Origin: Bacteroidales bacterium
GTDB taxonomy: Bacteria > Bacteroidota > Bacteroidia > Bacteroidales > WCHB1-69
Direction: 5' to 3'
DNA: 64,000 nucleotides
NCBI GenBank assembly: GCA_016281255.1
Contig: JAEEIG010000037.1
Span: 453-64,452, forward strand
This document shows, one piece after another, positions 26,224 through 62,580 of the stretch. A model generated the notes under the pieces. That model was not told where the DNA came from. It did no database searches and saw only the letters and a list, made by a program, of their open reading frames with translations. The position numbers and the translations under genes were made by a program. Position 1 is the first letter of the stretch. Each line of letters begins with the position of its first letter.

Positions 26224-27522
26224 TCAATAAGAGACCAGTTTTTTGATGGCTTTTTTACCGTTTTTGTCCTGAAAAACCAGAAGATAAGCCCCTTTGCCAT
26301 AGGGAAATGGATAGGATAAACGGTTGGTGCCTTCCTCCAGTTTTTCCTGATAGCGGGCAAGGAGCCGTCCGTCTATGGAATAAAGACTGATCATGCAATT
26401 ATCATTGAAGTCGCTTTGCCATTCAATCTGCAGCTTTTCCCGAACGGGGTTGACGACATTGACAAAAAAGCCGGTGGTGCGCTCGGCCAGGCCCACGTGT
26501 GCATCAATGGCCAAGTCCATCACTACCGGCAAATGGTCGGACTGCATGAAGAGGGCGTTGGCCACGTTGTCGGGCACCGAATTGTTGATAGGGGAGAGTA
26601 CAGAACCGTTGAACCGCATGCCGTCTTGACCTACCACGTGATAAGAGCCTTCCACAACATGCACCCGGTCGCTGCCATAGTAGATATAGGGCGATACCAG
26701 GATGATGTCGAAACGGTCGTCCAGTCCGCCGTCCGAGAAACAATCCACCGACTGATTGCGTGTGGATTGGGTGTGCAGAGCGGCGAATTGCGGGTTGTTG
26801 TGCCAATCGCCGGGACTGTTCACAGGGTCGTAAAAGCGGTAAAGACTGTTGGAATACTCCGTAAGTTCTTTGTATGCGGGCTCTTCGCTGTAATAGATGT
26901 TAAAGTCGCCCGAGAAGGTGTGGTTTCCCGGCATCCCTGAATTGGAGATGCGGTTCATCAATTTCTGGACCTGGGCCAGACGGTAGTTTTCGTTGGCGTT
27001 GCCGGAGCCCGCTTTCAAGTGTCCGATCCAAAAGGTCATGAAGATGGTGTCTCCCGAAGCCAGGTTGTCGGCATTGTAGTAGAAAGTGTATCCGTTAATA
27101 TCTCTGTATGAAGTGGTTATGTTGGTTGATTTGTACAAGGTCAGCTTGCGCGAGTCGTAGTAGATCATGTTGGCGATGGTTCCGCCCGACTGGCTGGTGA
27201 GCGGACCGCGACGGTAGTAGTCGATGCCGTCGGTGTTGATGGCGTTGTTGAGCAAACGGTCGGCATATTGGTTCTGGGCGCCCATCTCGCACACGCCCAT
27301 CACGGTGGGTTGCACGTGCTGGAAGATAGTCTTGATGTGGATATCCTTGTTGTCCAGGTTGTTCGTGACGCTGTTGCAGCCCGAAACCCCGGAGTTGTTG
27401 GTGTAGTACATCAGGTTGTACTGCATCATGCGAATCGTGTCCGGTCCCTGCGCAAAAGCGTTCCCTGCCGCTATGAGTAGCAGCAACACTGATATACTGA
27501 TGCGTTTTGATGACCGATGCAT
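26224..27522 (-). CDS. endonuclease/exonuclease/phosphatase-family protein with a T9SS C-terminal sorting domain
   Basis: 432 aa with signal peptide MHRSSKRISISVLLLLIAAGNAFAQ and an SDHLPVV motif. CTD-like tail: SLYSIDGRLL...GAYLLVFQDKNGKKAIKKLVSY. Confidence 0.7.
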   Translation of the reverse strand: MHRSSKRISISVLLLLIAAGNAFAQGPDTIRMMQYNLMYYTNNSGVSGCNSVTNNLDNKDIHIKTIFQHVQPTVMGVCEMGAQNQYADRLLNNAINTDGIDYYRRGPLTSQSGGTIANMIYYDSRKLTLYKSTNITTSYRDINGYTFYYNADNLASGDTIFMTFWIGHLKAGSGNANENYRLAQVQKLMNRISNSGMPGNHTFSGDFNIYYSEEPAYKELTEYSNSLYRFYDPVNSPGDWHNNPQFAALHTQSTRNQSVDCFSDGGLDDRFDIILVSPYIYYGSDRVHVVEGSYHVVGQDGMRFNGSVLSPINNSVPDNVANALFMQSDHLPVVMDLAIDAHVGLAERTTGFFVNVVNPVREKLQIEWQSDFNDNCMISLYSIDGRLLARYQEKLEEGTNRLSYPFPYGKGAYLLVFQDKNGKKAIKKLVSY

Positions 27523-36843: not shown

Positions 36844-36960
36844 CGATAATTTAATCAAAATTTATGTAGTGTTTTGAAATATTTATCAAGTGTTAATTGT
36901 TGATAAGTTTATATTTTGTTTGTTGTTAATTAGTTGGGTAGATAAAAGGATCGTTTTTTT

Positions 36961-37036
36961 GAGACTTGAGACTTGAGACTTAAGACTTGAGACTTAAGAC
37001 TTGAGACTTAAGACTTTGAACCTGAAACCTGAAACT
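36961..37036 (+). repeat. heptanucleotide tandem array (RAGACTT)8 + (TGAAACY)3
   Basis: Read directly: GAGACTT x3, then AAGACTT/GAGACTT alternating x5, then TGAACC, TGAAACC, TGAAACT. It lies between the gldB 3' end and the ssb promoter. Confidence 0.95.
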
Positions 37037-37101
37037 TTTGGGATAAGTAAACACAACAGTTGTTGTTCATCACTTCCCTCTTCCTTCTTCCCTCTTCCTT
37101 C

Positions 37102-38142
37102 TCACGACGGTTTGTATCCCGATTCTTTCAGGATTTTCTGGCTGTCGGTCATCTTCAGGAGTTCGTTGAGTGTGGTCTCGGGATGCGATTTCATGTAGCT
37201 TTGCACGATTTGGAAGCCGATGAAGACGCCGATGCGGCCGGGCGAGTCGTTGCCGAAGTCGCGGGTGAAGGGTGTCTCGTCGATCATGCGGCGGATGACG
37301 TCGTCGGAATTGTTATAGACCATGTTCTTTTCGATGAGTTTGTGCCAGATGGCCGACTCGTGCTCGATGGCCCATTTGTACTGCTCTTTGCTGTAGCAGA
37401 GGATATCTTCGGGCGGGGTGTTCGGGAACATCGTCTGCGTGAAGAGCATCTTCTTGCCGGCATCCACCATGTTGTCGAGCAACGTGACCAAGGTTTTGTC
37501 GGGCAGATGTCTGTAAACCAACGCTTTGGAGAAGCAGTCGGTGGCCATGTACTTCTTGTCGCAGCGGGCGGCGATGTATTTTGGCATTCCGGCTTGTCCG
37601 TAGTGCTTGTAGTCTTTGCCGAGGTACATGTCGAGGCAGATGAAGATGGTGTTTTCGTAACCGAAGACCTGCGGCATCTGGAAGTCGATGCCGGAAACCA
37701 GTGTGCAGAAGTCGGGGGCGTTCTCGTTGGGGAAGTGGGTGAGGTAGAGGCTCATGGCCGGGGTGACCTGACGTTTGAAGTCCGAGAGGTCGGCAAACTG
37801 GGCTTCCGTGTCTTTGTAAATCTCCTGGATGACGGGGTCGTTGATGAATCCTTTGATGGACTGTATCATTTCGGCGTTGTTCCAGGCGCCGTCGGCCACG
37901 ATGTTGTCAGGATATTTGCCGTAGAGCTTCTTGAATCCCACGGACATGTCGCTCTGGTCCATCATGAACAGGTCCTGTTCGTAACGTGATATTTTGATCT
38001 CCACATTTTTGGCTTTCTTCACCTGTTCTGCCGTCAGGGTGGGTTTTGCGACATTGACAGGTGCGTTCTTTTTCTTGCATCCCGTGCATCCCATGCAGAT
38101 AATCAGCAAGATACAGAGGATGGATAAGAGGTTCTTTCTCAT
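37102..38142 (-). CDS. gldB: gliding motility lipoprotein GldB
   Basis: The ATG at 38142 gives lipobox MRKNLLSILCILLIICMGC. The C-terminal region DSPGRIGVFIGFQIVQSYMKSH...ESGYKPS matches my recollection of the GldB family. The -7 box at 38167-38174 excludes the track start at 38169. Confidence 0.8.
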   Translation of the reverse strand: MRKNLLSILCILLIICMGCTGCKKKNAPVNVAKPTLTAEQVKKAKNVEIKISRYEQDLFMMDQSDMSVGFKKLYGKYPDNIVADGAWNNAEMIQSIKGFINDPVIQEIYKDTEAQFADLSDFKRQVTPAMSLYLTHFPNENAPDFCTLVSGIDFQMPQVFGYENTIFICLDMYLGKDYKHYGQAGMPKYIAARCDKKYMATDCFSKALVYRHLPDKTLVTLLDNMVDAGKKMLFTQTMFPNTPPEDILCYSKEQYKWAIEHESAIWHKLIEKNMVYNNSDDVIRRMIDETPFTRDFGNDSPGRIGVFIGFQIVQSYMKSHPETTLNELLKMTDSQKILKESGYKPS

Positions 38143-39495: not shown

Positions 39496-39531
39496 GTAGG
39501 GACGTGCCATTGGCACGTCCCTACGTTTTTT
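39496..39531. terminator. bidirectional terminator, perfect GTAGGGACG palindrome
   Basis: GTAGGGACGTGCC-att-GGCACGTCCCTAC followed by GTTTTTT, between convergent genes. Confidence 0.8.
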
Positions 39532-40321
39532 ATTGTTTGAACCACAGGGGATGATCGCTGTCGTCGATGTAGTACAATTTGTCTTGAAAAAATCGGAATT
39601 GTGTGATGTTCGGTATTTTGATATCTATGGTTTCGATGGACATTGGGGAAGATTCGGTGGGAATTCTGTAGCGATACAAGGTGCTGTTTTTCAGATAAAT
39701 GATTTGATCCTTCGATAATTGCATCGCTTGGATGCCGGGAATGGGAATCATCTTCTCGAAGGTTCCGAAGAAGTCGAAAAGGCAGATGCCGCAAAGGGTG
39801 TCGAGGAGGGCGATGCGGTGTTCGGGGACGACCTGCATGTCCGTGGGGTGGAATTCACCGGGGAAGGTGATGTGTGTCTGACTCAACAAGTTGAGACTGA
39901 GGTCGGTGATGATGAGGTCTTGGTTGGCTTCGTCGTAGAGCACTATTTTGTTGGGGTTGCCCATAGCGGCTAACGAAACGGTCATCAACCCTTTGTCGAA
40001 GAGGCTCAGCGATCCATTGATAGGGGACAATTCGTTGTTCAACAGCAGGATAGTGCCGCTCTCTTGGTAGAAGACGAGGATTTTGGAGGCGATGCCTGCA
40101 TCCACTCTCGAAATGTTGCCCCATGTGGGATCGCTGTAGTTCAGCCGTTTGATGCCGTCGGCCGTGTAGGTGTCCAACGTCGAACCCATCGAGAGGAAGA
40201 CGTTGCCTTGCAGGTCAGTGGTGACAGACTCATATAGCTTGTCCGTAAAAAAAAGTCGCTCCTGGGCACTAACGCTCAGGGCGACTGAAAATATTATAAT
40301 GATGGAGATGAGATGTTTCAA
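39530..40321 (-). CDS. hypothetical exported protein (third gene of the low-complexity lipoprotein operon)
   Basis: 263 aa with signal peptide (M)KHLISIIIIFSVALSVSAQE and beta-rich sequence. The start codon is TTG and lies inside a TGAAACY repeat. No family recognised. Confidence 0.5.
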   Translation of the reverse strand: MKHLISIIIIFSVALSVSAQERLFFTDKLYESVTTDLQGNVFLSMGSTLDTYTADGIKRLNYSDPTWGNISRVDAGIASKILVFYQESGTILLLNNELSPINGSLSLFDKGLMTVSLAAMGNPNKIVLYDEANQDLIITDLSLNLLSQTHITFPGEFHPTDMQVVPEHRIALLDTLCGICLFDFFGTFEKMIPIPGIQAMQLSKDQIIYLKNSTLYRYRIPTESSPMSIETIDIKIPNITQFRFFQDKLYYIDDSDHPLWFKQ

Positions 40322-40341
40322 GTTTCAGGTTTCAAGTCTTA
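40314..40341 (-). repeat. heptamer array TAAGACT TGAAACC TGAAACT TGAAACA (read on the minus strand)
   Basis: It fills the 17-nt gap between the stop of the barrel gene (40339-40341) and the TTG start at 40321. The units are the same as the tail of the 36961 array. Confidence 0.8.
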
Positions 40342-41781
40342 GAATTTGCAACCGATGGTGGCCACCACGCTGTGGGATTTGGTGGTGTAGAGTCCCGGTT
40401 CGCCTTGCGGGTCATACAACCAGTAGCTGTCTTTGTTCAGACGGAACACGTAAGCCAAGTCGGCGAACATCACTTTTCCTCTGAAACCCAGGCCGCCAGA
40501 AATGAAGTGGGTGGTGTTGTTGTAGTCTTGGGGTGCTGATTTGTAGGGAGAGGTCTTCAGACGGTAGCCGGCGCGCAAGGCGAAACCTTGGGTGATGTTC
40601 ACTTCCGCACCCACGCGGATGTTGTGAGCTACGCCGAACTTGGAGGAAACAGCTTCGTTTTCTCTCACGAAATTGTAATCGTCGGCGTATAAATTGGCCA
40701 TTCCGTAGTTTTCGAACTCATATTCCGCCGCGATGAAGGCGCGTTTGGCAATCAAGAACGAGGTGTTGACATTGAATTTCAGCGGTGTGGTCAGCGAGTA
40801 GCGGTAATTGTTGTTGTAGAAATTGGTGTTGCGCTCGCCGCTACTGTAGCTGGTGGTCATCTCGCGATAGAATTTGTCGCGGATGGTCCAATAGTAGGTA
40901 GGCGTGTGGAAGGCGGCGCCGATGCGAACGAAATCAGCGGGTTGGTAGATGAAACCCAATTTGAGGTTCACGCCCGTACCCGAATTGCGCTGTTCGGAGT
41001 ACCAGTCATAGTAGTTGATGCCGTAAATGTTGCCTCCCGCTGCCGGCTCTTCGGTGTACAAGGTGGTCTCTTTGAAGTCGAGGAAAGGGAAACCGATGGT
41101 GGCGCCCAGGAACAACTTGTCGTTGTAGTTGCCGCCCACGCTGATCACCATTTCGTTGATGGCGCCATACCGGTTGACTACGGCCTTCTGGTTGAGATCT
41201 TGGTCGTCAAACAGGCTGTAATACTGGTTGTTAGTTCCCGGGAACGTGTCAATCAGCCAGCTGTTCCAAGCTAATTGGCCGTCACCTGTGAGGAGGTTGA
41301 AGGGGATTCCGTTCACATTGTCCACCACTTGGTCCATCATGGTGGAGTGGGTGTTGGCGCTGAAACGGAGCGTGTTGTTGAAGTCCATGATGCGGTTGTA
41401 GCCGAAGCCGAACTGCCAGGATTTCCAATTGTTGTCTTGCTTGATCTTGTGTACGGAGACAATGCCGGCCTGCGGAACCGTGTATTTGGTTTTGCGGGAC
41501 TCATTGTGGTTGCCGTAATAATAAGAGTCATTGTAGGCGAAGGTGAGGTTCATCGGGGTGAAAGTCACCTCATGGCGTTTGAAGAGGCCGATGGCGGCAG
41601 GGTTGGTGCTGAGCGCCGAGAAGTCGCCGCCCGTAGCCCCGAAGGCACCGCCTGCGCCCATGAAACGCGCCGTGCCCCAATAGTCGGCTTGCGAAAAGGT
41701 GAAGGCTTCATAGTCGCCTTGTGCGTTCGCCATTCCGATGATGCCTATAATTGCGATGATGAAGGTTGTTATCTTTTTCAT
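40339..41781 (-). CDS. FadL/PorV-like outer-membrane beta-barrel protein
   Basis: 480 aa with signal peptide MKKITTFIIAIIGIIGMANAQ. GTARFMGAGGAFGATGGDFSALSTNPAAIG is an OMPP1/FadL-type N-terminal motif. It ends in an aromatic residue (CKF). Confidence 0.65.
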   Translation of the reverse strand: MKKITTFIIAIIGIIGMANAQGDYEAFTFSQADYWGTARFMGAGGAFGATGGDFSALSTNPAAIGLFKRHEVTFTPMNLTFAYNDSYYYGNHNESRKTKYTVPQAGIVSVHKIKQDNNWKSWQFGFGYNRIMDFNNTLRFSANTHSTMMDQVVDNVNGIPFNLLTGDGQLAWNSWLIDTFPGTNNQYYSLFDDQDLNQKAVVNRYGAINEMVISVGGNYNDKLFLGATIGFPFLDFKETTLYTEEPAAGGNIYGINYYDWYSEQRNSGTGVNLKLGFIYQPADFVRIGAAFHTPTYYWTIRDKFYREMTTSYSSGERNTNFYNNNYRYSLTTPLKFNVNTSFLIAKRAFIAAEYEFENYGMANLYADDYNFVRENEAVSSKFGVAHNIRVGAEVNITQGFALRAGYRLKTSPYKSAPQDYNNTTHFISGGLGFRGKVMFADLAYVFRLNKDSYWLYDPQGEPGLYTTKSHSVVATIGCKF

Positions 41782-41789
41782 TTTTTTAA

Positions 41790-41830
41790 GGTTTACAGGT
41801 TTATGGGTTTACAGGTTTGACAGGTTTATC
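41790..41830. repeat. 8-bp period array (GGTTTACA GGTTTATG GGTTTACA GGTTTGACA GGTTTATC)
   Basis: It fills the gap between the lipoprotein gene stop (41826-41828) and the barrel gene start (41781). Confidence 0.85.
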
Positions 41831-43427
41831 GTCTGCCGCCGGAGTGGGAACCGCCGGAGTGTCCGCCGCCGTAAGAACCGCCGCCATAGGAACCGCCGCG
41901 CGAGGAGCCGGAGCTGCTGTGGGAGGAACCGCTGTAGGAAGAACGGCTGCTGGAAGAGGGTGCGCTGTAAGAGGAGGGACGGCTGCTGGTGGATGCGGGA
42001 CGGTTGGTCGCGGGCGTGCTGCTGTTGCTTCTGGAAGGAGTGGCCGTGGCGGGACGGCTGTTGCTGCTTGACGGACGGTTGTAGTTGGAACGAGGGGAGG
42101 AGGGAGCGGTGGTCGTCGGTCTGGTTGTGGTGCTCGGAACCGTGCGGGTGGTGGTGCGGGGAGCGGTCGTGGTCGGTGTCGTTGTCGTGCTGGTGCCGGT
42201 GCTCGGACGAGTGGCGGTCGGACGGGTTGTCGTCGGACGGGCGGTCGTGCCGGAGGGGGTCACTACCGTGCGGGTCACTGTGGTCGGACGAGTGGTGGTG
42301 GTAGTGCTCGGAGTGGCACTGCTGTTTGCGGAAGCGCTTGTTCTGGCGGAAGTTACCGTGGTTGTCGTGACGGGCTTGGCCGTGGTGCCGGAAGTGCCGT
42401 TAGTGTTGGAGGGAGCCGTTGAGCCGTTGGCGGGAGATACGGTGGTATAGGTCGAGGCCGCATTGTCTTTGGTGTTGCGGGCGTTGGTGATCTTCTTTTC
42501 GGTAGGATTCACAGGGGAGGTGTTGCCGCCGTTGCCACTGTTGTTGAAACTGCTGCCGCCGCCCGTGGTGCCGGCGATTTGGTCGTAGCGTTGGTTGAAG
42601 GAGGTTGGCGTGGAGGAGTAGTGATTGTTGGTTGCGCCGTTACCGTAACCGCCTGCTATAGGACCGTTTGAACCCTCATGGTCGGGACGCTCGCCGCGGC
42701 CGCCGTTGCCATTGCCACCACCGTTACCCACGGAGGGTCCGATGTTGTTGCGGTGACCATAGTAATAGCTATGGTTCGGGTCGTGGTTGTTGTGGTACCA
42801 GTCGATAGGGGCGGGACCGTGAGGGCCGTAAGGGCCAGGATAGTAAGGATCCCAAGCGTAGTAGGGGTAGGGTCTGTACCAGCCCCAACCGTAGTTGAAC
42901 CCGCAACTGTACCAGCAGGGACCATAGTAGTAGGGACGATAGTAGTAACCCGGCCACCACCAATTGTAACCCAGGTAGATGCTTAAGCCAAAGCTGGCCG
43001 GGCAGTAGTCGTACCAGTACATGTTGGTGAAGAAGGGGTCGTAGTAGCCCCAGCCAACGTAAACATCGCTGTGGAAACGGCGGATACGAGACGCGTAGGC
43101 GTAGTCGTAATAGTCGTCCGGGTCGTACGCGTAGTTGCTGGCGGCGGCGGTGGAGTCATTCGCCACCTCCATGTAGGTGGTGACCACCGGCTCGCTGCTG
43201 CCCGGATAGTAGGTCAGCGTGCGCAACAGATTGCCGTTTTCGTCGGTTTCGTAAATGATGGAATCGGCCTCGACGGCGGCGTTGGCTGCGGCCGGATTGG
43301 CGGTCTTCGCCTTCATTTCGTCCGAAGATGAGGTGTATATGTCATCGTAGTAGGCGAAGTTCGCTGTGGAACAAGCTGCTAACAAGCAAGTTATTGCGCT
43401 TAGTACGATTAAAATTTGTTTCTTCAT
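41826..43427 (-). CDS. low-complexity lipoprotein (Y/W/P/G-rich block, T/S/P/R mucin-like block, SYGGG/HSGG tail)
   Basis: 533 aa with lipobox [19 protein letters not shown]. Contains [51 protein letters not shown], a ~200-aa S/T/P/R/A tract, and the end [23 protein letters not shown]. Confidence 0.6.
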
Positions 43428-43453: not shown

Positions 43454-43461
43454 TATTTTTG
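43454..43461 (+). promoter_or_regulatory. putative -7 box for proS
   Basis: TATTTTTG lies 60 nt upstream of the ATG at 43522. Confidence 0.4.
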
Positions 43462-43521
43462 CACCTTAATTTTCAATTAGACGGCAAAAGTACTAAAAAG
43501 TTAATATATACCGAAAAATTT

Positions 43522-45073: not shown

Positions 45074-45874
45074 ATGCAACAAACTGATAAATATGCAGAG
45101 GCTCTGTCGGCGTTCCGGCATCTGCTGGAAATCATGGACGAGTTGCGTGAGAATTGCCCGTGGGATCGAGAACAGACTTTCGACACATTGCGCAACCTCA
45201 CTGTAGAAGAGACTTTCGAGCTGGCGGATGCCATCATGGAGAAGGACTATCCCGACATGTGCAAGGAGCTCGGGGATCTGATGCTCCACATTGTCTTCTA
45301 CTCGAAAATTGCTTCCGAACAGCATCTTTTCGAGGTGAAAGATGTAATTAACCAGCTGTGTGACAAATTAATACGCCGTCACCCGCATATCTACGGCGAG
45401 GTCAAGGCCGACTCGGCCAACCAAGTGCACGAGAACTGGGAGAAGATCAAGCTGCAAACCGAAGGGAACCGCTCCGTGCTGGGCGGCATCCCTTCCGGAA
45501 TGCCGGCGATCACCAAAGCTTACCGCATCCAAGACAAGGTCAGCGGGGTCGGTTTCGACTGGGACAACCGCGACCAAGTGTGGGACAAGGTGCAGGAGGA
45601 GCTCGGAGAACTTCAATCCGAGGTCAACAGTCCCGCCCCCGACCAAGCCCACATTGAAGAGGAGCTCGGCGATGTGCTTTTTGCCATCGTCAACTACTCC
45701 CGCTTTATCAACGTGCACCCGGAAGACGCCTTGGAAAAAACCAACCGCAAATTCCTTCGCCGTTTTCAACTTCTCGAACAATATGTGAAGGCCGACGGAC
45801 GTTCTCTTACCGATATGTCGTTGGCTGAGATGGATGTGTATTGGGAAAAGGCGAAGAGAGAGTTGAGACGTTAG
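45074..45874 (+). CDS. mazG: nucleoside triphosphate pyrophosphohydrolase MazG
   Basis: About 266 aa from MQQTDKYAEAL. Two MazG EExxE/D motifs are present (EETFELADAI, EELGDVLF). The TAG stop lies inside a heptamer array. Confidence 0.9.
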   Translation: MQQTDKYAEALSAFRHLLEIMDELRENCPWDREQTFDTLRNLTVEETFELADAIMEKDYPDMCKELGDLMLHIVFYSKIASEQHLFEVKDVINQLCDKLIRRHPHIYGEVKADSANQVHENWEKIKLQTEGNRSVLGGIPSGMPAITKAYRIQDKVSGVGFDWDNRDQVWDKVQEELGELQSEVNSPAPDQAHIEEELGDVLFAIVNYSRFINVHPEDALEKTNRKFLRRFQLLEQYVKADGRSLTDMSLAEMDVYWEKAKRELRR

Positions 45875-45915
45875 ACTTGGGACTTGGGACTTGGGACTTG
45901 GGACTTGAGATTATA
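45867..45915 (+). repeat. heptamer array GACGTTA (GACTTGG)4 GACTTGA GATTATA
   Basis: Read directly. It contains the mazG stop codon. Confidence 0.95.
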
Positions 45916-45982: not shown

Positions 45983-46031
45983 AAAGTCCTAAGTCTTACG
46001 TCTTAAGTCTTACGTCTCAAGTCTTACGTCT
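45983..46031 (-). repeat. heptamer array in inverse orientation (AAAGTCC TAAGTCT TACGTCT TAAGTCT TACGTCT CAAGTCT TACGTCT)
   Basis: Read directly. It is the inverted partner of 45867-45915, 67 bp away. Confidence 0.95.
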
Positions 46032-46047
46032 TATAAACCCCACTCGG

Positions 46048-47973
46048 ATGTACCACAAATTAAATATAGTATATATAATATTAATGTGTATCATCGCTCC
46101 GATGATTACCAGTGCGCAGAAGAGTTCCAAGGCGGCGCCGTTGTTTGAAAAGGCCAAGCAGTGTATGAAATCCAACGATTTCGACAAGGCGTTGACCTAT
46201 CTTTACCAAGCGCAAGCCAAAGATGCGAACTTTGCCGACCTCTATATCATGAAGGGCGACATTTTCAACTTCCGTTTGCAGTCCGACTCCGCCATGTGCA
46301 ACTACCAGCGTGCCATCGAGCTCATCGGCGATCCTGACCCGATGCTCTACTATATTGCCGGAAACGAGGGAGCGAAGTGCGGTGCCTACGAATATGCGCT
46401 CAATACCTTGCAACTTTTCCTGCAGAACGGTCTGCAGTATTCCGATGTGCACCCCGATGCGCAGAAAACCATTGCCAATTGTCGGTTTGCCATGGAGGAG
46501 ATGCGGCATCCCAAGCGTTTTGAGTTGGTTAACATGGGTGCCAACATCAATTCCGAGTGGGACGAAATGCTTGCCGCCATCACTGCGGACGACGAACAAC
46601 TCATTTTCACCGTTAAGCGCCCCCGCGACAAGGGCACCGTCTGCGCCTTCTGTCTCAATGAAGAGGATCTCTATAGCAGTCGTTTCGTCAATGGCGACTG
46701 GCTGCCGCGCGAACCGCTCGGCCCTCCGGTGCGTACCGGCTATAACGAGGGAGCGCAATGTCTCTCCCCCGACGGCAAGTATCTGCTTTACACCATGTGC
46801 GATGCCGACTTCGGGATGGGAAGCTGCGATATCTATTGGGCCAAGCTCATGGGTGACAAGTGGTCACGGCCCCGCAATTTCGGTGCGCCGGTGAACACTT
46901 CCGCCTGGGAGAGCCAGCCGACCATGTCTTCCGACGGCATGACCGTCTATTTTGCCTCTTCCCGTCCGGGCGGGTACGGCGGTATGGACATCTGGAAGAC
47001 CACCATGACCGCAGAAGGGGAGTTCACGGTTCCCGAGAATCTCGGTCCGTCGATCAACACCCCCGGCGACGATGCCGCCCCCTTCATCCACAGTGACGGC
47101 CGCACACTCTACTTCGCCTCTAACGGTCGCGTAGGCATGGGAGGCTATGATCTCTACTACACTACCCTCCAGCCGGATGGTACGTGGAGCGACCCCAAGA
47201 ATATGGGTTACCCTATCAACTCCCCTGCTGATGAGATCAATATCTTCATTAACGCCTCTGGTACAATGGCTTACATGGCTTCCGACAAAGACGGGGGCTA
47301 CGGCGGTCTCGACCTTTACCGTTTCGAGCTCGACGATGAGTTGCGTCCCAACCCTGTCACCTACATCAAGGGTCGTGTGCGCGACGCCTTCACCGGCGAT
47401 CCGTTGTCGGCCCGCATCGAGATGATCGACCTCTCCACACGTCAGCTTCTCACCTCCACCACTTCGGATCCGCTGACCGGCAGTTATCTTGCCTGTATTC
47501 ACACCGGGGGCAACGTGCTGCTCAACGTTTCGCATCCCGACTATCCGTTCTATTCCGAGAACTTCCAGCTGGAGCGCACCTACACGGAACTTTCCCCGTA
47601 TCTGAAAGACATTGCCTTGCAGCCCACGGATGTGGGAACGGTGGTGACATTGAAGAACGTCTTCTTCGACTTCGACAAGACCGAGCTACGGCCCGAGTCG
47701 TACGTGGAGCTTGACAAGTTGGTTGAGTATCTCCGAAAGCACAACATCCGGATCGAGATCGGAGGGCACACCGACGACCAGGGTTCCGACGAGTACAACG
47801 ACCGTTTGTCGGAGAGTCGTGCCAAGTCGGTGTATGACTACTTGGTGAGCAAAGGCATCTCCGCCGACCGGTTGCAGTACAAGGGTTATGGCAAGCGGAT
47901 GCCGGTTGCCGACAACGCCACCGAGGAGGGGCGTGCGGCGAACCGGCGGACCGAGTTCAAGATCATACGGTGA
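46048..47973 (+). CDS. OmpA-family outer-membrane protein (TPR + TolB-like beta-propeller repeats + OmpA C-terminal domain)
   Basis: The start at 46048 (MYHKLNIVYIILMCIIAPMITSAQ) lies downstream of the repeat array. PD40-like repeats are present (YFASSRPGGYGGMDIW, YFASNGRVGMGGYDLY, YMASDKDGGYGGLDLY). OmpA motif GHTDDQGSDEYNDRLSESRA...NRRTEFKI. Confidence 0.8.
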   Translation: MYHKLNIVYIILMCIIAPMITSAQKSSKAAPLFEKAKQCMKSNDFDKALTYLYQAQAKDANFADLYIMKGDIFNFRLQSDSAMCNYQRAIELIGDPDPMLYYIAGNEGAKCGAYEYALNTLQLFLQNGLQYSDVHPDAQKTIANCRFAMEEMRHPKRFELVNMGANINSEWDEMLAAITADDEQLIFTVKRPRDKGTVCAFCLNEEDLYSSRFVNGDWLPREPLGPPVRTGYNEGAQCLSPDGKYLLYTMCDADFGMGSCDIYWAKLMGDKWSRPRNFGAPVNTSAWESQPTMSSDGMTVYFASSRPGGYGGMDIWKTTMTAEGEFTVPENLGPSINTPGDDAAPFIHSDGRTLYFASNGRVGMGGYDLYYTTLQPDGTWSDPKNMGYPINSPADEINIFINASGTMAYMASDKDGGYGGLDLYRFELDDELRPNPVTYIKGRVRDAFTGDPLSARIEMIDLSTRQLLTSTTSDPLTGSYLACIHTGGNVLLNVSHPDYPFYSENFQLERTYTELSPYLKDIALQPTDVGTVVTLKNVFFDFDKTELRPESYVELDKLVEYLRKHNIRIEIGGHTDDQGSDEYNDRLSESRAKSVYDYLVSKGISADRLQYKGYGKRMPVADNATEEGRAANRRTEFKIIR

Positions 47974-48004
47974 TTAGTGATTTGTGAGTTGTGAGTTGTG
48001 ATTT
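47970..48004 (+). repeat. heptamer array GTGATTA GTGATTT GTGAGTT GTGAGTT GTGATTT
   Basis: Read directly. It contains the TGA stop of the OmpA-family gene. Confidence 0.9.
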
Positions 48005-48034
48005 GAATTGCTGATAATCAGAAGGTTATGAGAT

Positions 48035-48500: not shown

Positions 48501-51500
48501 ATGAAAAAACTATTATCAATTTGCTTTTTAAGCATTCTGCTGGGGCTTCTGAGCTTCAGCACTCAGGCGCAAAGCAATTGCTACGGTTTCTGGATGGAGA
48601 ACCTCCAGCCAGACGTTCTGGATCATGTTGCCAATCCTGGTAACGAGACCGGAACCTACGCGTTGAACCATACGTTGGGTCATGCCGTTTTGCGCGGCCA
48701 ATCCAATCGTTATGTCGGCAACGTGGATTCAAGCGCCATCGGTCAACCCGAGCTTTATGAGTTGCATTTTTGCGACAATGCCTCTGGAAAGAAGCTTTCT
48801 TTCGACTGGCAGTTGGAGCGCAGAAATCCTGCAACCGGCAATTGGCAGATCGTGAACGATAACCTGTCTGCTTATGCGGATTTCGGTATCTACACGCTCT
48901 ACCCGCAACTCAATCAAGCAGGCCAATGCCAGAGCATCAAATGGCTCGGCGGTATTGTCCCGAACGGAATCGGCTACTGCGACAACAGTCAGGTCTATTC
49001 CTTGCTGGACACTATCCTTGGCATTCCTCCTTGCACCACCCCGACCAACTATCCCGGTGCTGTGCAAACCCAAGCTGGTACTCTGCCCGGCAGCGTTCTC
49101 AACACGCTGGGTCAGGCTATCCCTTCCATTGGTATGACTCCCATCTATACTGAAGGTTTCGATTACTTCTATGCAGACTTCCTTGCTTCCACCCGTACCA
49201 TTGTTGTCATCAACTGGAAACAGGTGGGTGATTACAGATTGGTGATGCGCGTGCGCGAGCGCGTTGGCGGTACTGATTGGACCAATGCCACCTGGAACAA
49301 ATACGGCGAAGGCAATGTCATGAACGAAACTGCCTATATCGGCGGTCACATGTCTTGCTGCGGTCCTGTCCTCCTTGTTGATACTTTGCATTATCCTGTT
49401 CTTGACACACTCAACATGGAAGTTTGTCAAGGAACCACCACTGAAATGGGTAGCCCTTACACCTACACTTTCGGTGTTGATCAAAGATGCATCCTCGACA
49501 CGACTGTCTTGGTTGGCGAAATCGTCAATGCAGACTGTCCGAGCGAAAGCCCCTGCCAATATATTGATATTGACACTCTCCGCAATGTGAACTACCTTGT
49601 GCGCATGGCTCCTGTTGCGCAAGTTGAAAAACATACTGACACGCTCTGCAAGTGCGACGCATTCACCACCGACATGGTTCGTGCTATGGTGGAATTCGAT
49701 TCTACTGAAATCGCTACTTTTGTTACCGGAGACGAAACCGTTGAGTATAAACTGCAATGGTTGCACGTGTTCCAAGAAGGTGAACATTTACCTGCAGGTG
49801 ATGGTGCTCTTTGTCCTAATTGTGATTGGTATGAATCCATCTATCCGCGCTCAATTACGGTTAATCCTGCAACCAATGATACTACCTATATGTACATTGT
49901 TCGTCAGGTCAACACCTACAACAATTATGGAGAAGAGGTGGTTTGCGCTGGTCCTGCCGATACCATTTACATCACTTTCCGCGAGATTGTGAAGCCGGTG
50001 GTTCCTGCTGACACTGCTTTCTGTCTTGAAACTATTGAGGCAGGTAGCACTTTGACCATTAACGCCACTCATGATCCTGTATGTGCAAACTCAACCCGTT
50101 GGTATACAAGCAGAAAGTATAATTATTGGACATATAAATATGATTATTCAGGTTATCTGGGTGATGTTGATGCTCTTGTAATTAACCTCAATGATTACAC
50201 CCCTTCTGTCAATAAGGACACCACGGTGCGTTTCTATGCATTCTCTATTGATACGACCAATGGTTGCATGTCCTCTCAGGTTTCTGTTTACACGATTGTT
50301 TTCCACCAGACTCCTGTGCTTGATACAGTAACGGCTCCTAACCTCTACAATTGTCCTGGTGTTGATGTGCCGATGGAAGTTATTGTGGACAACAATCCTT
50401 TGAATACCCCGAGTCCTTATACCTTTGTATGGACTGGTGTAACTGGTGTCGATTTGTTGAATCCGGCTCCTGCTCCGGCTAGCATCGCAACGGTGTCCAC
50501 TATCTCTACGCAAGCTAATTCATCATACGAATTACCATTGAGTAACAACTTTAATTACACTTATAGCCAGCAAATTTTCACGAAAGACGAAGTGGCTTCT
50601 GGTGTGATTAGTACTATTTCTTTCAATTATTCTTCAGCCAATCAGATGACCGCTAAGGACGATGTGAAGATTTATCTTGGTACTACTGATAAAGAATCTT
50701 TTACGGGCTATGGCAACTGGGATCTGACATCTGAGTTGACTTTAGTTTATTCAGGCAATCTCAATTGTAAGCAGGGATGGAATGATTTTACACTTACTAC
50801 TCCTTTTGACTACGATGGACAGAAGAACTTGTTGGTTGTTATTAGCGATGAGTCTGGTGTTTATGATGGTACTTCTTATAAATTTTATACAACTCCTGCA
50901 GGTGCATATAGAACATTGGTTGTGATGCAAGATGGCAGTGTTGCTACGCCTACATCCTATAATGGTGCTAGGAAAAACGTCCGTAGTGATATTAAGTTTA
51001 CGGTTGTTCCTGCCGGTGCTTACACGACCTCTGATGAATTCCAGCAAGCTTACTATCATATTTCCGATACTGATACATGTCATACCGCTTATACTTCTAG
51101 CGTTTATGTCATTGATGCCAACAACTGTAAGTCTACTCCTATCGTCTTTAACTACTTCTTGAACGATACTGTTGCTCCTGTAATCACTCCTGCTACTGTT
51201 TCTTACGGTATCAATGCTTGTGAAATTACGAGCCAGAACGTTCCTGCATACGACAACCTCGCTGAACTGGTTAACGCATTTAATTTGGATATCTACGACA
51301 GCTGTGGTGCTGAGTTTGTCGTTTTGGTTGGCCATAACGATGTTATGACGATCGATTCTTGTCAACAGACCCTCGTGAGAACCTATACCTTTGCTGATCA
51401 TTGCGGAAATCCTGCTACTTTCACTCAGACGGTTGTTTCTCGTGACTCTGTTGCTCCTTACTATACTTTCGATCGTCCGATCCGTCTCGACCCGATTCCT

Positions 51501-54500
51501 GCCGGTGACTGTAAGTTCAATGCTCCCAGCAGACAAGTCATGATTGACGCTATCGCTCCTTATGTGGCTGACAACTGCACCGATTCCGCTTTCTTGATGG
51601 ACAGCATTACCTTCGTTTGGGAGAACACCGACAAGGATCCCGCTTCTGATACCAACATCTTCAGATTGAAGAACCACCTGACCATTACCGCCACTATCAC
51701 TGACAAGTGCGATAACAGCTTCTCCGAAGTGGTCTTCTTCCTCGATCGTCCTGATGATCTCGAAATCGTCGGTCATCCCGTTTCCCATACCGGTGACCTT
51801 TGCGAACAACAGACTGCCACTCTCTTCTTCGATATGAACAGTATCGTTGATGACCAGGAAGTTGGTCCGTTCCCGCCGTACACCCTCACTTGGTATGAGG
51901 TGAATGGTAAGGATGTCACCTTCTCTGATATTCACAATGACACCACAGTGGTGACCTTCAATGAGGGTGCTGGCGACTATACCTTCGCTATGCGTGTGGT
52001 GAACGGCAACGATTGCGAAGCTGTTTCCGCTCCCGCCACCATCAATGTCAGAGAACTCCCGAGCTTGAGCATTATCCCGATCGTCCAACAACCCGGTGTT
52101 GTGGAACCCTACTGCCCGACCTATGGTAATTTGACCATCGAGGCCGTTGTTGCCAATGCCGAGACTTCCGGCGCTACCGGCTACACTTACACTTGGTCTG
52201 GTGAGAGTGTGAATATCTACTCCACCACTGAGACCACTTGGATCACGATTATCCCTGAATGGTGTGATACCACCTACACTGCCACTGTTGTTGTTTCTGA
52301 TGAAAGAGGTTGTACTGCTGAAACGTCCCGTACTTTCGAAGCAGCTGCCCACGATATGATTTTCAATGGCATTATTCCTGATTCTACCGTTGTTATCAAC
52401 CAAGGTTGTGAACTCCATGTTCCTAACTATATGGATCAGATTGCTGCTGAGAACATCACGGACGATTGTTATACCTTCTCCCAGATTACGCAAAAAGCTG
52501 GTTGGTATAAGCAAACTCCTGCTGCCGGTACTGTTTTCTCTACCGATTCAGTCGAGGTTACCATTACCATCACCAATCCTTGCGGCCAGACGGTTTCTAC
52601 CACGACTTATGCACGCAAACCTGCCAACTATCCTTCTGTGAAGATTGTTCCTGACACTATCGCTGTCTGCTACAATGAGTTCTTCGAAGGTGTTACCTAT
52701 AATACCGTAAGCGAAAATCTGGATGACAACACCACTTGGCGTTGGACCATCGGCAACGGCATTGTTGGCACTCAAGATTTCGTCACTCTTCCCAACGACG
52801 CTTTCAACGCTCCTGTGAACCAAGACACGACCTATGTCGTCAATGTCCAAGCTGTGAACAGCCTCGGTTGTCCTGCTACCGCTACCGCTAATCTTGTCAT
52901 CTACTACCAGGGTGATTCTGTCCAACTCCGTGTTTGGAACAACAACCTCTGTGGTGAGGATTATTACAATGGCGTGATTGCTGTTGATTTCGTCCCCACG
53001 AACTATGTGGTTACCCTGTCTCAAGGCAATGTTGACCTGGAGGTTAAGATTTCCGATAACAACCAACATGAACCTACCCTTTGGAATACGGTGATTTTCG
53101 ACTCTTTGGCTCCTGGTTACTATACCGTCACGGTTGAGAACCTGCATGGTTGTACCATGTCTGCCGATACCGTTGTCAGAACGGATGATGTCATCATTTC
53201 TGAACCTACTGTTACGGTTACCGATGTTACCGTTTGTACTGATAATAACGGTGTCATTTCAGTTGTTCGCGAGAACAATTACGGTTTCACCTTGTTCAAT
53301 TCCGATTATTCTGTTGAATACACCGGTATTGTGGCAGGTGCGAACATCAACTTCTCCGGTCTCTCCGCAGCTGAGTACAAGTTGGTAAAGACTCATATTC
53401 CTACCGGATGTGAATTTGCCTGGACTTACAATGTCCTTGATGCTTCTGAACCTGAAACCCAATTCGATATCAACTATACAAACAATACTCGTTGTGACAA
53501 TCCTAACGGTACCATTCACTTCACCGTTACCGGTTCTGATCCTTTGACTTTGCATGTTTGGAATGCAAATTATGACTATACTACTGGCGCCATCACCACT
53601 GATACTACTATCACGGGTCTTGGTTCTACTCAGGGATATATTTTCTATCTTTGCGAAGTTCAGAATACAGTTACTCAATGTAAGAGCGTCGTTTCACGTG
53701 TTCTGATTGAGAATAAAGCTGTTCTTCCTTCCTTTACGGCTACTCCTACTAATAACACCATTTGCCCGAACAACACTGCTTATAACAACAATGTCGAGAA
53801 TTTGGTCAACGGTAAGATTACGATTGCTCCGGCTAATGCGTACACTTATACTGTAATGGATGCGATTACGCTTGACACTGTTAAGACCTCTCTTGATTCT
53901 TTGGCCGAAGGTTCTTATGTCGTTATTGCTGTTAATGAGCAGAATGGTTGTGCTGCTATGAAGGTTGCCAATATTGGCAACACCTATTACCAACCTGTTG
54001 TCGAAACCATTTCTCAAACTCCCAACAGCGTTTGTGACACCACTTACGCTCATCAGTATGATGGTTCTCTGACTATCAAGGTCAAATCCAGCACCAATAC
54101 CATTGCTGATTTCAACAACTACATCCGTCCTTACATGATTGTGCTTGACAACGACACTGTCATTGCTCAATCCAATATCCAGCAAAATACGATTACACAC
54201 CTCGCAGATGGTGTTCACAACTATTACATCCTCACGGATAACAAATGTTATGTCACTGGTTCATACGAAGTGAAAAAGTATGTGATCGACACGATGAGAC
54301 TGGCGACCACTCCTGATCACTTCTGTGCTCCTACTTTCGAGAAACCTGGTGACGGTACTATCGTTGTTCTCTCACCTCGTAATTCTGCTGCACACGGTTA
54401 CAAGTACAAATTCTACGATGCCGACAGCACTGATATGACTGTTCCTTACGAAATGCCTATGACTTACACCAAGTACTGGCTTGCCGATGGTTTATATACC

Positions 54501-57500
54501 GTATTTGCTATCGATACCATTACCGGTTGTACGTTCACTGAGAACATTTATGTCGAGAAGGAACTCTACACCATCACTATCGCTGCTGACGCTACTCCCA
54601 GCACCTATTGCAGCCAAACCTCTGGCGACGGTACGATCACTGTGAATGCTACCAGCACCAATCCTGACGCTGTTTTCAACTACAGCCTTGACAATCAGAA
54701 CTGGCAGGTGAGCAATCTGTTCAGCAATTTGGCTAACAAGACTTATACCGTCTATGTCAAGGATGTCACCACTCGTTGTGTGGACAGCATTTATGTCGGT
54801 ATCAGCTACAGCGATTGCAGACCTGAAATCTCCATCGTTGACCAAAACGGCGACACTGCTCCGTTCGAATATTGTATCAACGACGAGAACGTCAAACTTT
54901 GCGCTAACGCTTTCTATCCTCTTGGCAGCGAATGCGAAGGTACGTTCACCTATCATTGGGATGCTCCTTGTTCAGATCCTCAGTATTCTGACGACAAGTG
55001 TATCGACGTCTTCATTGACCACGTGATGCCGAACGGTTGTAACTACATCCTTACGGTCACCAATCAACTGACGGGTTGTTCTTATGACACGATGGTTTAT
55101 GTCTATGTCAATCCTAAACCTGTCATCGGTTTCGATGTGAATGGTACAACCTATTATAACGCCGAGCAATCTATTCCTTTCTGCGAGCAAGAGAATCTCC
55201 ATATTACTGTTGTCTCTAAGAATGGTCAAACTCTGGTTCCTGAACTTACTTACTGGACTCTCGGTCACATTGGTACTGGTTTGAGCTTCGATACCACTGG
55301 CGCTGGCTACACGCAAGATTACATTACCATCTGCGCTTACTCTACCAGCGACAAGGGTTGTGTTTCCAACATTGCTTCTCTGCCGTTGAACTTCAACCGC
55401 GTGGAAAGAATCACTGTTGACACCACCGTTTGTGGAAGTTTCCAAGTTCCGGACGATATCAGAACTATTACCAGCAATACCTATCCTTACTATGATACTG
55501 TTTCTCATACGTATCCTGGTACACATCCTTACTGCGACCGCATTGTGACTTACAATGTCAAGCTCATCTCTGCTCCTGAGGTTACTCCTTTGAACGAGTA
55601 TGTGGCTGCTTTCTGTGAGGATATGAACTATACGTTGGCTAACTTCGTTGATTCATTCGCCGTTGACACCAATGGTGCTACTACAACTACGAAGTGGCAA
55701 GCTGCTTTGCGTCCTTCCTATAATTACGTTGATGTTGAAGCTACTACTGTTGTTGACTATGCATTTGCTACCACTCACAGAGTTAGATATGTTGCCACCA
55801 ACTGCTGCGGTACTGACTACTCTGATATCTATTTCAATGTTTCCAAGGCTCCTCGTATCGACAGCTTCCAATTGCAATCTAAGTATTGTAGAGCTCAACA
55901 GGCTACCTTAACATTTGATTTCACTGTTTATAATCCTGCTATCGCTGTTTTGACACTTGGTGCTGATACTGTTAGAAGTTATTACATGTATTCTAATGGT
56001 TCTACCAGTCGTACATTCACGTTTACTCCTAACCATGCTAATTATGATGGTAAGACACTCACTTTGAGCATTAGAAATCTAAACAACCTCTGTGATGTTG
56101 TTACTGCAAGCCAAGTGTTCCACGTTGATACTACTTTCATTAATAACTTCACTATTGATACGATTTATTGTGCTGGTAATACTCTCCATCACAGTGATCT
56201 CATCGATGGTACTGGTTATACTAATGTTCGTTTGTGGCATCAAATCGCTGGTCAAACTGATCAAAGAATTTATAATAATTCTACGGTTACTTATGCCATG
56301 AATGGTTATCTCGTATACTTCACCATGAATGATGGTTGTGGTAACCAGATTACGACCAACATTGATACTATCTTTGTGAAACCTCAACCGAGCGTTACTC
56401 TCAATGGTGATGATTATTACAATGTTTGTGAGGATGAATTTGAATTGCCGACTGTTAACATTCCTTCAAATGTTCAATCTCTCGTCTTATCACAAGGTTG
56501 GCAAATGTACAATGGTACTACTCAATCATTTGAAGATACCACTGCTGCCGATATTATAGCTCTTGCTGCTGATAGCATTGTAAGAATTCGTTACTTTGTT
56601 GAGACTGACTGTAATGTCGCTTATACTCAAGCAATCGAGGCTTACTATAAGTTCGCTCCTGAGATTGCCCAACTTCCTACTCTCACTATTTGCCCGGACA
56701 ACACTATTGCTGACGTTCTTCCTACTTCATTGGGTATTACTTGGCATAACATTCTTCTTCCCAACACTAATAACTTCCGTACTACTCGTTATTATTTAGT
56801 GAAGGGAACGAATACTGTTGAGGTTTATCCTACTTCTGTCTTTAGCAACTATTATTCATACAATGATGGTAAATTACGCATTGTAGTTACCAACGAGTGT
56901 GGTTCTGCTTCAACCGAAGCTACTATCCACATCCCGGTTTACAGCCACAACGAAATCGTTGCTGTTGACACATGTAAAGGTCTCACCATTGCAGCCTTCG
57001 CAGCTACTCCTCAATGGACCGGTGATCAAGGTGTTGTCACCTCTGAGACTTGGGTGCGTCTTGTCAATAATGAATATGTTGCTACCACCGATGAGTATGT
57101 CGTGAACACCAATACCACTATTTCTTATCGTTGGATTACTGTTTGCGAAGACACTCTCTACGCTGCTCCTGTCACGATTCATCCTCTGCTGACTCCCGAA
57201 GTTACTATCTTGGCTGACAACCTTGTCAACGATACTATCGCCATCTGTGAGGGTAACACGATCAATCCTACTGCTTTTGTCAGCTATCCTATCTATTCTT
57301 CCACCGTTACTGACACTACTTGGTTCTTCAACGGTAATGCTTACGATCCTTCTTATCAGTTCACCGCAGCTGACAATGACAAGGAACTTGTTGTCAAGCT
57401 TTCTACCACTTGCGATGATTCCTACGATACTGTCATTGTGAGAGTTTATCCTACTCCGGATCCTACCATCGACGGTCCTCTGACTGCTTGTAGTGGAGAA

Positions 57501-58767: not shown

Positions 58768-58953
58768 GATTTGAGATTTGAGATTTGAGATTTAAGACTT
58801 AAGACTTAAGACTTATGACTTATGACTTAAGATTTAAGACTAAAATCTAAAATCTAAAATCTAAAGTCTAAGGTCTAAAGTCCCAAGTCTAAAGTCTAAA
58901 GTCTAAAATCTAAAGTCCCAATTCTAAAGTCTCTAAAGTCTAAAGTCCCAAGT
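58768..58953. repeat. 186-bp head-to-head inverted heptamer array (10 forward GAYTTRA units, then 16 reverse CTAAAGT-type units)
   Basis: Read directly: (GATTTGA)3 GATTTAA (GACTTAA)2 (GACTTAT)2 GACTTAA GATTTAA, then (CTAAAAT)3 CTAAAGT CTAAGGT CTAAAGT CCCAAGT (CTAAAGT)2 CTAAAAT CTAAAGT CCCAATT CTAAAGT ct (CTAAAGT)2 CCCAAGT. Confidence 0.95.
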
Positions 58954-60741: not shown

Positions 60742-60830
60742 TTTGTGATTTGTGATTTGTGATTTGTGATTTGTGATTTGTGATTTGAGATTTGAGATTT
60801 GAGATTTGAGATTTGTGATTTGTGACTTGT
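60714..60830 (+). repeat. heptamer array: degenerate GTTAGTA units, then (GATTTGT)7 (GATTTGA)4 (GATTTGT)2 GACTTGT
   Basis: Read directly; 14 clean units from 60733 to 60830. It spans the ABC gene stop and lies upstream of four-helix cassette 1. Confidence 0.95.
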
Positions 60831-60871
60831 GTTTTTTTAAGTGATGTTTGTTTTTGTATTATAATATTTTT

Positions 60872-61341: not shown

Positions 61342-61379
61342 GTCATAAATCATAAGTCATAAATCCTAAGTCTAAAATC
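61324..61379 (-). repeat. heptamer array, inverse orientation (CATAATC ATAAATC ATAAGTC ATAAATC ATAAGTC ATAAATC CTAAGTC TAAAATC)
   Basis: Read directly; 8 units between four-helix gene 1 and trmB. Confidence 0.95.
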
Positions 61380-61387
61380 AAACATCA

Positions 61388-62053: not shown

Positions 62054-62088
62054 GACTTGAGACTTGAGACTTGAAACTTAAGACTGTA
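62040..62088 (+). repeat. heptamer array (GACTTAA)2 (GACTTGA)3 AACTTAA GACTGTA
   Basis: Read directly. It contains the stop codons of both convergent genes: trmB (62051-62053) and four-helix gene 2 (62078-62080). Confidence 0.95.
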
Positions 62089-62534: not shown

Positions 62535-62580
62535 AAAGTCTTAAGTCTCAAGTCTTAAGTCTAAAAATAATCTCAAGTCT
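62535..62580 (-). repeat. heptamer array, inverse orientation (AAAGTCT TAAGTCT CAAGTCT TAAGTCT ... CAAGTCT)
   Basis: Read directly. It lies upstream of four-helix cassette 2 and reads AGACTTR on the cassette strand. Confidence 0.9.

Follow-up and report, generated by a model that had tools for sequence, protein, structure and literature searches.

Do a peculiar lipoprotein and the outer-membrane barrel encoded beside it form a functional pair, and if so, what do they handle? The question is raised by three genes, here called A, B and C, on the minus strand at 39530-43427 of a 64-kb stretch of DNA (the window) from an uncultured rumen Bacteroidales bacterium, corresponding to positions 453-64,452 of contig JAEEIG010000037.1 in assembly GCA_016281255.1. 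A is a lipoprotein, B an outer-membrane barrel of the FadL superfamily and C an exported protein rich in β-structure. Judged by gene order in related genomes, the conserved unit is A-B, with a coupling that is strong, not absolute. The reading favored here, to which we give a probability of about 0.4, is that A and B make up a dedicated lipoprotein-barrel complex that would act, at the outer membrane, on hydrophobic molecules, probably fatty-acyl ones. Within this reading, the complex itself is the more probable part and the particular substrate the less probable one.

Synteny was scanned in one genome per species, giving 80 loci, all from uncultured Bacteroidales or Lentimicrobiaceae of the rumen, gut and digesters. 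The nearest is that of a metagenome-assembled genome (MAG) from yak abomasum, with 94% identity in B. A and B stand side by side next to proS in 61 of the 80 loci. Locus L080 has this arrangement as well, with a contig end that cuts A and leaves its tail (...GSSGHRK) visible, and it recurs, between outer flanks that differ, at P0145 (L084) and P0149 (L085), the most distant of the A homologues that could be looked up, gene callers having split A in both. The total comes to about 64 loci, down to 35% identity in B. C is found behind B in 48 loci, which all belong to a rumen and gut clade, and it therefore lies outside the conserved unit. The earlier note on this DNA had asked whether all three genes are inherited together and would have taken a lack of conserved synteny as a refutation; A and B pass this test, and C does not belong to the pair that is kept.

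It could be that A and B are neighbors through linkage only, carried along in a stable housekeeping region around proS, with B an ordinary FadL-type channel and A an unrelated envelope lipoprotein. The existence of B orthologues without A and of an A homologue without B would fit this explanation, as would the wider synteny of the rumen clade, in which the genes beyond proS, for MazG and for a PD40/OmpA protein, are also kept. However, the A-B adjacency outlasts these other neighbors: it persists where the MazG and PD40/OmpA genes have been lost (L059-L083) and where the flanks are different (L084 and L085), and the two genes are separated by a short gap, run in the same direction and have no internal promoter box. 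Linkage as the whole explanation thus seems unlikely. In a neighbor-joining tree of B, clades without A are nested among clades with A, and loss or relocation of A looks the same there as paralogy. The invariant N-terminus of B (see below) is no marker of an A neighbor: orthologues that lack A show the same degree of conservation in it.

Gene A has a clear domain plan (Table 1). The lipoprotein signal peptide is followed by an acidic region of ordinary composition (residues 20-95), a conserved core whose 140 residues include 33 Tyr and 10 Trp, and a long tail. The earlier note described the protein as almost wholly low complexity, a description that fits residues ~236-533 but neither residues 20-95 nor the conserved core. 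The tail starts with a G/N-rich part, continues through a T/S/P/R stretch with an isoelectric point of about 12 and finishes in an S/G/R-rich end (...GGSHSGGRR). It contains no acidic residue past residue 326, and FUS-like GGSYGGG units are found at the C-terminus. All 61 orthologues from related loci keep the same plan, including the make-up of the tail and a basic C-terminal dipeptide (RR, HR or RK). The core is 45-89% identical among orthologues and includes 18 invariant alignment columns.

A search of 1.84 billion representative proteins with a profile of this core alone gave 730 clusters, formed at 50% identity, at E ≤ 0.001 (450 at E ≤ 1e-10). The members are mostly 400-650 amino acids (aa) long and have the core near residues 70-300. 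The make-up of the tail and its basic end are likewise kept among family representatives, 56 of 140 of which end in RR. The lipobox pattern for signal peptidase II substrates, [LVI][ASTG][GAS]C, is matched by 60 of the 61 orthologues and by 106 of the 140 representatives. Nearly all of these lipobox-bearing members (163 of 166) also carry a DD(I/V)Y motif, which in most of them starts 9-14 residues past the lipid-bearing Cys. This N-terminal stretch is a candidate docking segment. On these sequence grounds, A belongs to a real, widespread lipoprotein family without annotation, with signatures that lend themselves to testing: DD(I/V)YYS by the lipid anchor, a Tyr/Trp core with SRIRRF, and an acid-poor or acid-free tail ending in RR. 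The possibility that A is a gene-calling artefact of low-complexity DNA is ruled out by the conservation and by motifs at fixed positions.

The family went unmatched in the collections searched. A gave no match in Pfam at E ≤ 1, including the curli and Fap families and Por_Secre_tail, and no NCBIfam match above noise; ten distant homologues gave only noise in Pfam. Nothing was found at E ≤ 10 when the core profile and the N-terminal half of A were searched against the sequences of the PDB, among which are the solved Bacteroidota complexes of the β-barrel assembly machinery (BAM). In a look-up of names that covered 23 protein clusters, every name found was "hypothetical protein", from MAGs of Bacteroidales, Bacteroidia or Bacteroidota; no cultured organism turned up among them. 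The view that the locus matches no described system was thus borne out by the Pfam, NCBIfam and PDB sequence searches.

The exact sequences of B and C are present in a collection of 15 billion proteins (on 22 and 33 contigs, respectively), and that of A is absent from it. Near-identical strains show 2-6 substitutions in A or a length difference of 1-2 residues, variation from which it follows that A evolves faster than the neighboring genes. The sole member found away from B is encoded at L094:1334-2524; its core is 58% identical, it ends in ...GGTRR, and it has a gene for a β-helix protein next to it instead of B.

Gene B encodes a protein with a signal peptide ending ANA/QG. The mature N-terminus is nearly invariant (Table 1) and includes residues 36-65, the motif quoted in the earlier note. 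Its FadL-type NPA (N60-P61-A62) is invariant in 21 sequences and kept in all aligned relatives. B has more than 2,222 homologues. It gives no match in Pfam at E ≤ 1, including Toluene_X (PF03349), a family for which many of the homologues carry a precomputed match. The NCBIfam model for BamG (NF053685) scores 43.3 bits (E 2.4e-11; cut-off 250), and PorV_fam 33.7 bits (cut-off 90). The B orthologue in L085 reaches 46.2 bits with the BamG model, again below threshold, and distant relatives score 34-40 bits with PorV_fam and 17-25 bits with PorV and PorQ, all short of the cut-offs of the three PorV/PorQ models (NF033709, NF033710 and NF033711; 90, 250 or 220 bits). These weak PorV_fam and PorQ matches fall at both the N- and C-termini. 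A profile of 21 B homologues found a single PDB sequence, 3DWO, a FadL homologue from P. aeruginosa, with E 0.0017.

The AlphaFold model of B is a large β-barrel with several strands of 24-28 residues (predicted local distance difference test, pLDDT, 73.6; predicted template modeling score, pTM, 0.70), in which the N-terminal region is poorly resolved (pLDDT <50). The top Foldseek match is BtBamG (9hiv_F, E 1.7e-15), followed by FadL, TodX, TbuX and CymD, with E 1e-14 to 1e-10 and template modeling (TM) scores of 0.45-0.60. The earlier assignment of B to the FadL superfamily therefore stands on both the Foldseek matches and the sub-threshold NCBIfam matches to BamG and PorV/PorQ. PorV, which the note called its paradigm relative, is not the closest one: no PorV structure is among the top 50 PDB fold matches. 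By its modeled fold, B is a FadL-superfamily outer-membrane barrel of an unnamed subfamily, near BamG, PorV and PorQ but distinct from them.

Bacteroidota are by now known to use barrels of the FadL fold as platforms that hold other proteins, the examples being BamG-BamH, PorV-PorU and PorQ-PorZ. Cryo-electron microscopy showed that BamG, a FadL-fold barrel, binds the lipoprotein BamH through the conserved N-terminus of BamH; an operon encodes the paralogous pair, BamG2 and BamH2 (PMC12611786, PMC12578637). A literature search for a pair of FadL-type barrel and lipoprotein, or for a tyrosine-rich Bacteroidota lipoprotein, found only this BAM work (PMC12611786, PMC12578637). The A-B pair resembles BamG-BamH in combining a FadL-fold barrel with a lipoprotein that has a conserved N-terminus right after the lipid Cys, in the high conservation of the barrel's own mature N-terminus, in being encoded together like BamG2 and BamH2, and in having BtBamG as the top fold match of B. 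It differs in that B scores 43 bits against a BamG cut-off of 250, that A resembles no PDB chain, those of the BAM complexes included, that BamH has an acidic surface-export signal whereas A has none, and that no link of A-B to BamA is known.

These similarities raise the possibility that B transports nothing and serves only to hold A at the outer membrane, where the pair would have a structural or housekeeping role in the envelope, such as tethering, organizing lipopolysaccharide or peptidoglycan through the basic tail, or aiding the biogenesis of outer-membrane proteins or lipoproteins. The only curated families that B matches at all, BamG, PorV and PorQ, are docking barrels, its top fold match is BamG, and the near-invariant mature N-terminus has a counterpart in the N-terminal extension of BamG, which is likewise highly conserved (PMC12578637). 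The locus lies among housekeeping genes, adjoining proS, and even the composition of A has a precedent, in a flexible Tyr/Gly/Asn-rich loop of BtBamA (PMC12578637). On the other hand, the scores fall far under the cut-offs (43 bits vs. 250 for BamG and 34 vs. 90 for PorV/PorQ), A has no sequence similarity to any PDB chain, BAM complexes included, and a pure docking role leaves the acyl-activating neighbors of B in sister clades unexplained. A role limited to docking is possible, if somewhat unlikely.

PorV and PorQ, with their partners PorU and PorZ, are also similar to B in being Bacteroidota barrels of the FadL superfamily that hold partners at the surface, and B shows weak matches to PorV_fam and PorQ. 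They are set apart by the low score (33.7 bits vs. 90), the lack of PorV among the top 50 fold matches, and the lack of a type IX C-terminal sorting domain in A and C, neither of which has a Por_Secre_tail or any other Pfam match.

The neighbors of B in sister clades suggest what a complex of A and B might handle. In L077, L079 and L080, A-B is followed, about 40-77 nucleotides (nt) on and on the same strand, by a gene whose 823-835-aa product fuses AMP-binding, PP-binding and acyltransferase domains. In L072 and L074, which lack A, the gene upstream of B encodes an adenylating enzyme of the GH3 family and ends 16-28 nt before it; the neighbor in L071 and L075 has the same N-terminus, so that a GH3 enzyme is likely there too. 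The placing of acyl-activating genes beside a barrel of FadL type resembles the logic by which E. coli uses exogenous fatty acids, through FadL-FadD and Aas. By this analogy, the acyl-activating neighbors (five to seven loci) would point to fatty-acyl compounds, and they are the one line of evidence that bears on the substrate.

With the channels FadL, TodX and TbuX, B shares the fold, the invariant NPA and a Gly-rich, hatch-like N-terminus, and its sister-clade orthologues adjoin the AMP-binding/acyl carrier protein/acyltransferase and GH3 enzymes. Unlike them, the B of the window has no Toluene_X match in Pfam, and its only PDB sequence match is 3DWO, at E 0.0017. To our knowledge, no FadL channel has a dedicated lipoprotein partner. 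The design would be similar in logic to SusC-SusD, in which a barrel and a co-encoded lipoprotein form an uptake unit in Bacteroidota. However, B belongs, by its modeled fold, to the class of 14-strand FadL-like barrels and SusC to the 22-strand TonB-dependent transporters, and A is not SusD-like and lacks a surface-export signal.

The mechanism proposed here is that A, anchored by its lipid, docks on B through the DD(I/V)YYS segment, the Tyr/Trp-rich core or both, and that the two form a stable barrel-lipoprotein complex in the manner of BamH on BamG or of PorU and PorZ on PorV and PorQ. Hydrophobic acyl compounds would be handled through the FadL-type hatch and lateral-gate route, with the aromatic core of A as a capture or gating element, and the long basic tail of A might reach into the surrounding layer of the envelope. 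C would be a periplasmic β-propeller accessory gained in the rumen and gut lineage. The data show the gene structure, the fold class of B, the A family with its defining motifs, and the synteny; from these we infer the A-B contact, the substrate and the side of the membrane that A would face.

Several points weigh against a complex that handles acyl compounds. The structure models are of single chains, from which contact between A and B is a step of interpretation, and the model of C is a weak one. The best sequence relatives of B (BamG, PorV and PorQ) are docking barrels and not proven transporters, the B of the window falls below the Pfam threshold for Toluene_X, and the N-terminal hatch belongs to the low-confidence part of the model. 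About 20 B orthologues (40-47% identity) have neither A, C nor proS nearby, and the A homologue in L094 adjoins neither B nor proS. Finally, the acyl-activating neighbors occur in two subclades only and are absent from the window.

On which side of the membrane A lies is a related matter. In the BAM study, two acidic residues within six of the Cys were the criterion for surface lipoproteins (PMC12578637). None of the 166 A-family members has two or more acidic residues in that interval; the first acidic pair of most of them sits 9-14 residues past the lipid Cys. The surface location of A suggested in the earlier note is thus not indicated. It could be argued that B is a translocon or anchor that passes part of A across the outer membrane, in the way of RcsF-OmpA or Slam-type export, with the result that the Tyr-rich core or the basic tail is displayed at the surface without the usual acidic export signal. 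In favor of this, the acidic signal is missing throughout the family while almost every member has another motif, set at a constant spacing from the lipid-bearing residue, the tail is disordered, basic and about 300 residues long, and A and B are strictly adjacent. However, the lumens of FadL-type barrels are plugged by the N-terminal hatch, we know of no such barrel that passes a polypeptide, and the hatch region of the B model is of low confidence. Threading of A through B is improbable. The broader version, in which A-B would be a phylum-wide envelope module of the Bacteroidota with a FadL-like barrel as the anchor or translocon for a lipoprotein without acidic export signal, is similarly doubtful, as is its corollary that part of A is threaded or displayed by a new route, either as a surface-display path or as an RcsF-type sensor or tether.

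The composition of A also prompted a comparison with amyloid systems. The earlier note proposed that B exports an aggregation-prone A to build a surface amyloid or matrix, comparable to curli (CsgA/CsgG) or Fap (FapC/FapF). Common ground is limited to an outer-membrane barrel gene that sits beside one for an odd low-complexity protein, and to the composition of A, with its aromatic/Gly-rich region and FUS-like GGSYGGG units. There is no homology to these systems, however. A is lipid-anchored and its core is present in a single copy, without the imperfect repeats of CsgA or FapC; B has the FadL fold, a different type of channel from CsgG or FapF; genes for nucleators, chaperones or other accessory factors are absent; C is propeller-like; and no curli or Fap family is matched in Pfam. 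As every defining feature open to testing is lacking, the proposal is disfavored, and we regard it as highly improbable.

A lipoprotein-barrel complex of A and B, the interpretation preferred here, would extend the Bacteroidota rule of "barrel plus lipoprotein" to FadL-type channels and could explain the uptake or recycling of fatty-acyl compounds by Bacteroidales that abound in rumen and gut. If A were instead to cross the membrane through B, this would be a new route of lipoprotein display. As judged from sequence and gene order, the locus is a variant of the Bacteroidota barrel-lipoprotein theme, in which an unannotated lipoprotein family is tied to a distinct FadL-like subfamily. It adds another well-conserved, wholly unannotated pair to those known, with a lipoprotein family of at least 730 clusters that has no Pfam or NCBIfam model.

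C, the lineage-specific third gene, starts with TTG, and its signal peptide has a signal peptidase I site, VSA/QE. As in B, the residue right after the site is Gln, which is typical of exported Bacteroidota proteins. All 159 homologues lack annotation. No Pfam family was matched at E ≤ 1, and the C profile found nothing among PDB sequences at E ≤ 10. The model of C is all-β, with runs of short strands, and is weak (pLDDT 63.7, pTM 0.50), in keeping with the description in the earlier note of an exported, β-rich protein with a TTG start. Foldseek matched it to BamB, NHL and WD40 propellers, with E 1e-8 to 1e-6 and TM scores of only ~0.4. C is likely, on this model, a small periplasmic β-propeller, an assignment that is not established. 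In part of the rumen clade, C is followed by a fourth co-directional gene (L001:10255-11535), encoding 420-426 aa without a Pfam match. This gene is absent from the window, where a terminator and a convergent gene come after C.

The three genes look like one transcription unit (features listed in Table 1), to judge from the short gaps of 44 nt (A-B, 41782-41825) and 17 nt (B-C, 40322-40338), the single promoter box upstream of A and the strong hairpin after C. The gene order, direction and gaps given in the earlier note proved correct. No TAnnTTTG was found on the minus strand inside A-B-C (39530-43427), which fits the use of one promoter for all three genes. The hairpin (folding energy -26.2 kcal/mol, z -7.2) is common to C and a convergent gene resembling that for carboxynorspermidine synthase. 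An Rfam scan of the locus gave no match, and no further copy of A or B was found in the 64-kb window. The flanks consist of housekeeping genes: upstream, divergent from A, proS (TIGR00408, 576 bits) is followed by the MazG gene and the PD40/OmpA gene, and beyond C, the convergent gene is followed by GldB, ssb and alaS.

Table 1. Coordinates of features in the A-B-C locus, in the rest of the window and, where a locus handle is given, in related loci.
Feature	Position	Strand	Remarks
Gene A open reading frame (ORF)	41826-43427	minus	533 aa, ATG start
A residues 1-19, lipoprotein signal peptide	43371-43427	minus	lipobox LLAA/C (residues 15-19, Cys19), read from sequence
A residues 26-31, YYDDIY motif	43335-43352	minus	family form DD(I/V)Y(Y/F)S
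A residues 96-235, conserved Tyr/Trp-rich core	42723-43142	minus	includes YYYGHRN
A residues 236-533, low-complexity tail	41829-42722	minus	
Gene B ORF	40339-41781	minus	480 aa, ATG start
B residues 21-65, near-invariant mature N-terminus	41587-41721	minus	QGDYEAFxFSQxDYxGTARFMGAGGAFGATGGDFSALSTNPAAIG
Gene C ORF	39530-40321	minus	263 aa, TTG start
Bacteroidetes-type -7 promoter box TACTTTTG	43485-43492	minus	TAnnTTTG; ~58 nt upstream of the A start codon
Separate -7 box of divergent proS	43454-43461	plus	
Two-way terminator hairpin	39496-39524	both directions	13-bp stem, 9 G-C pairs, 3' of C
A-B spacer array	41785-41828		period 8, 5.5 copies, AAACCTGT on sense strand; Tandem Repeats Finder
B-C spacer array	40315-40337		period 7, 3.3 copies, GAAACYT; Tandem Repeats Finder
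Other arrays in the window	16699-16742, 36959-37016, 37073-37102, 45874-45907, 45984-46033, 47970-48005, 58768-58947, 60729-60835, 61327-61403, 62039-62085, 62536-62562		
AMP-binding/PP-binding/acyltransferase fusion	L077:7226-9697		downstream of A-B
AMP-binding/PP-binding/acyltransferase fusion	L079:7517-9988		downstream of A-B
AMP-binding/PP-binding/acyltransferase fusion	L080:2004-4511		downstream of A-B
GH3-family enzyme	L072:4431-5972		same strand as B
GH3-family enzyme	L074:4470-5984		same strand as B

Both gaps hold short-period repeats, as had been noted before, and Tandem Repeats Finder reported an array in each. As RNA, the A-B spacer has no structure (z -0.13), and the B-C spacer shows less structure than shuffled controls (z +1.44). 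The last unit of the GAAACYT array is itself the TTG codon (40319-40321) at which C starts. In L004, the B-C array runs to about 16 units before it, too, finishes in a TTG start; in more distant relatives, C starts with ATG after a short, repeat-free gap. Related genomes have other unit sequences in the same two gaps. Among strains with a 100% identical B protein (the window, L086, L087, L088, L090 and L091), the A-B spacer is wholly different: 44 nt of AAACCTGT units in the window, 59 nt in L088 and 51 nt in L091, and arrays of 153-161 nt of GACTTRA in inverted orientation in L086 (3380-3540), L087 and L090. For the L086 spacer, folding gives a long hairpin (-29.5 kcal/mol, z -3.7). Such differences may tune the expression of B and C relative to A between strains.

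Arrays of 7-8-nt units fill many intergenic gaps across the window, with heptamers such as AGACTTA/AAGTCTT, TTGAGAC and TTGTGAT, among others, in up to ~15 copies. Since the arrays are found genome-wide, the idea that the repeats are a regulatory feature specific to this operon was rejected. Similar heptamer arrays, placed between genes and just ahead of start codons, are reported for Beggiatoaceae, for cyanobacteria and for a few Bacteroidetes (PMC4679880).

One such array (45984-46033) lies downstream of the listed ATG start (45940) of the PD40/OmpA gene, the true start of which is probably a later Met ahead of a signal peptide (MYHKLNIVYIILMCIIAPMITSAQ). Beyond this gene, an ORF of 3,402 aa (48501-58709, plus strand) has as its positional counterpart in L001-L003 a 3,534-aa gene with a Por_Secre_tail domain, and is therefore probably a giant cargo of type IX secretion. 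A weak Por_Secre_tail match was also seen in an ORF at 26224-27522 on the minus strand.

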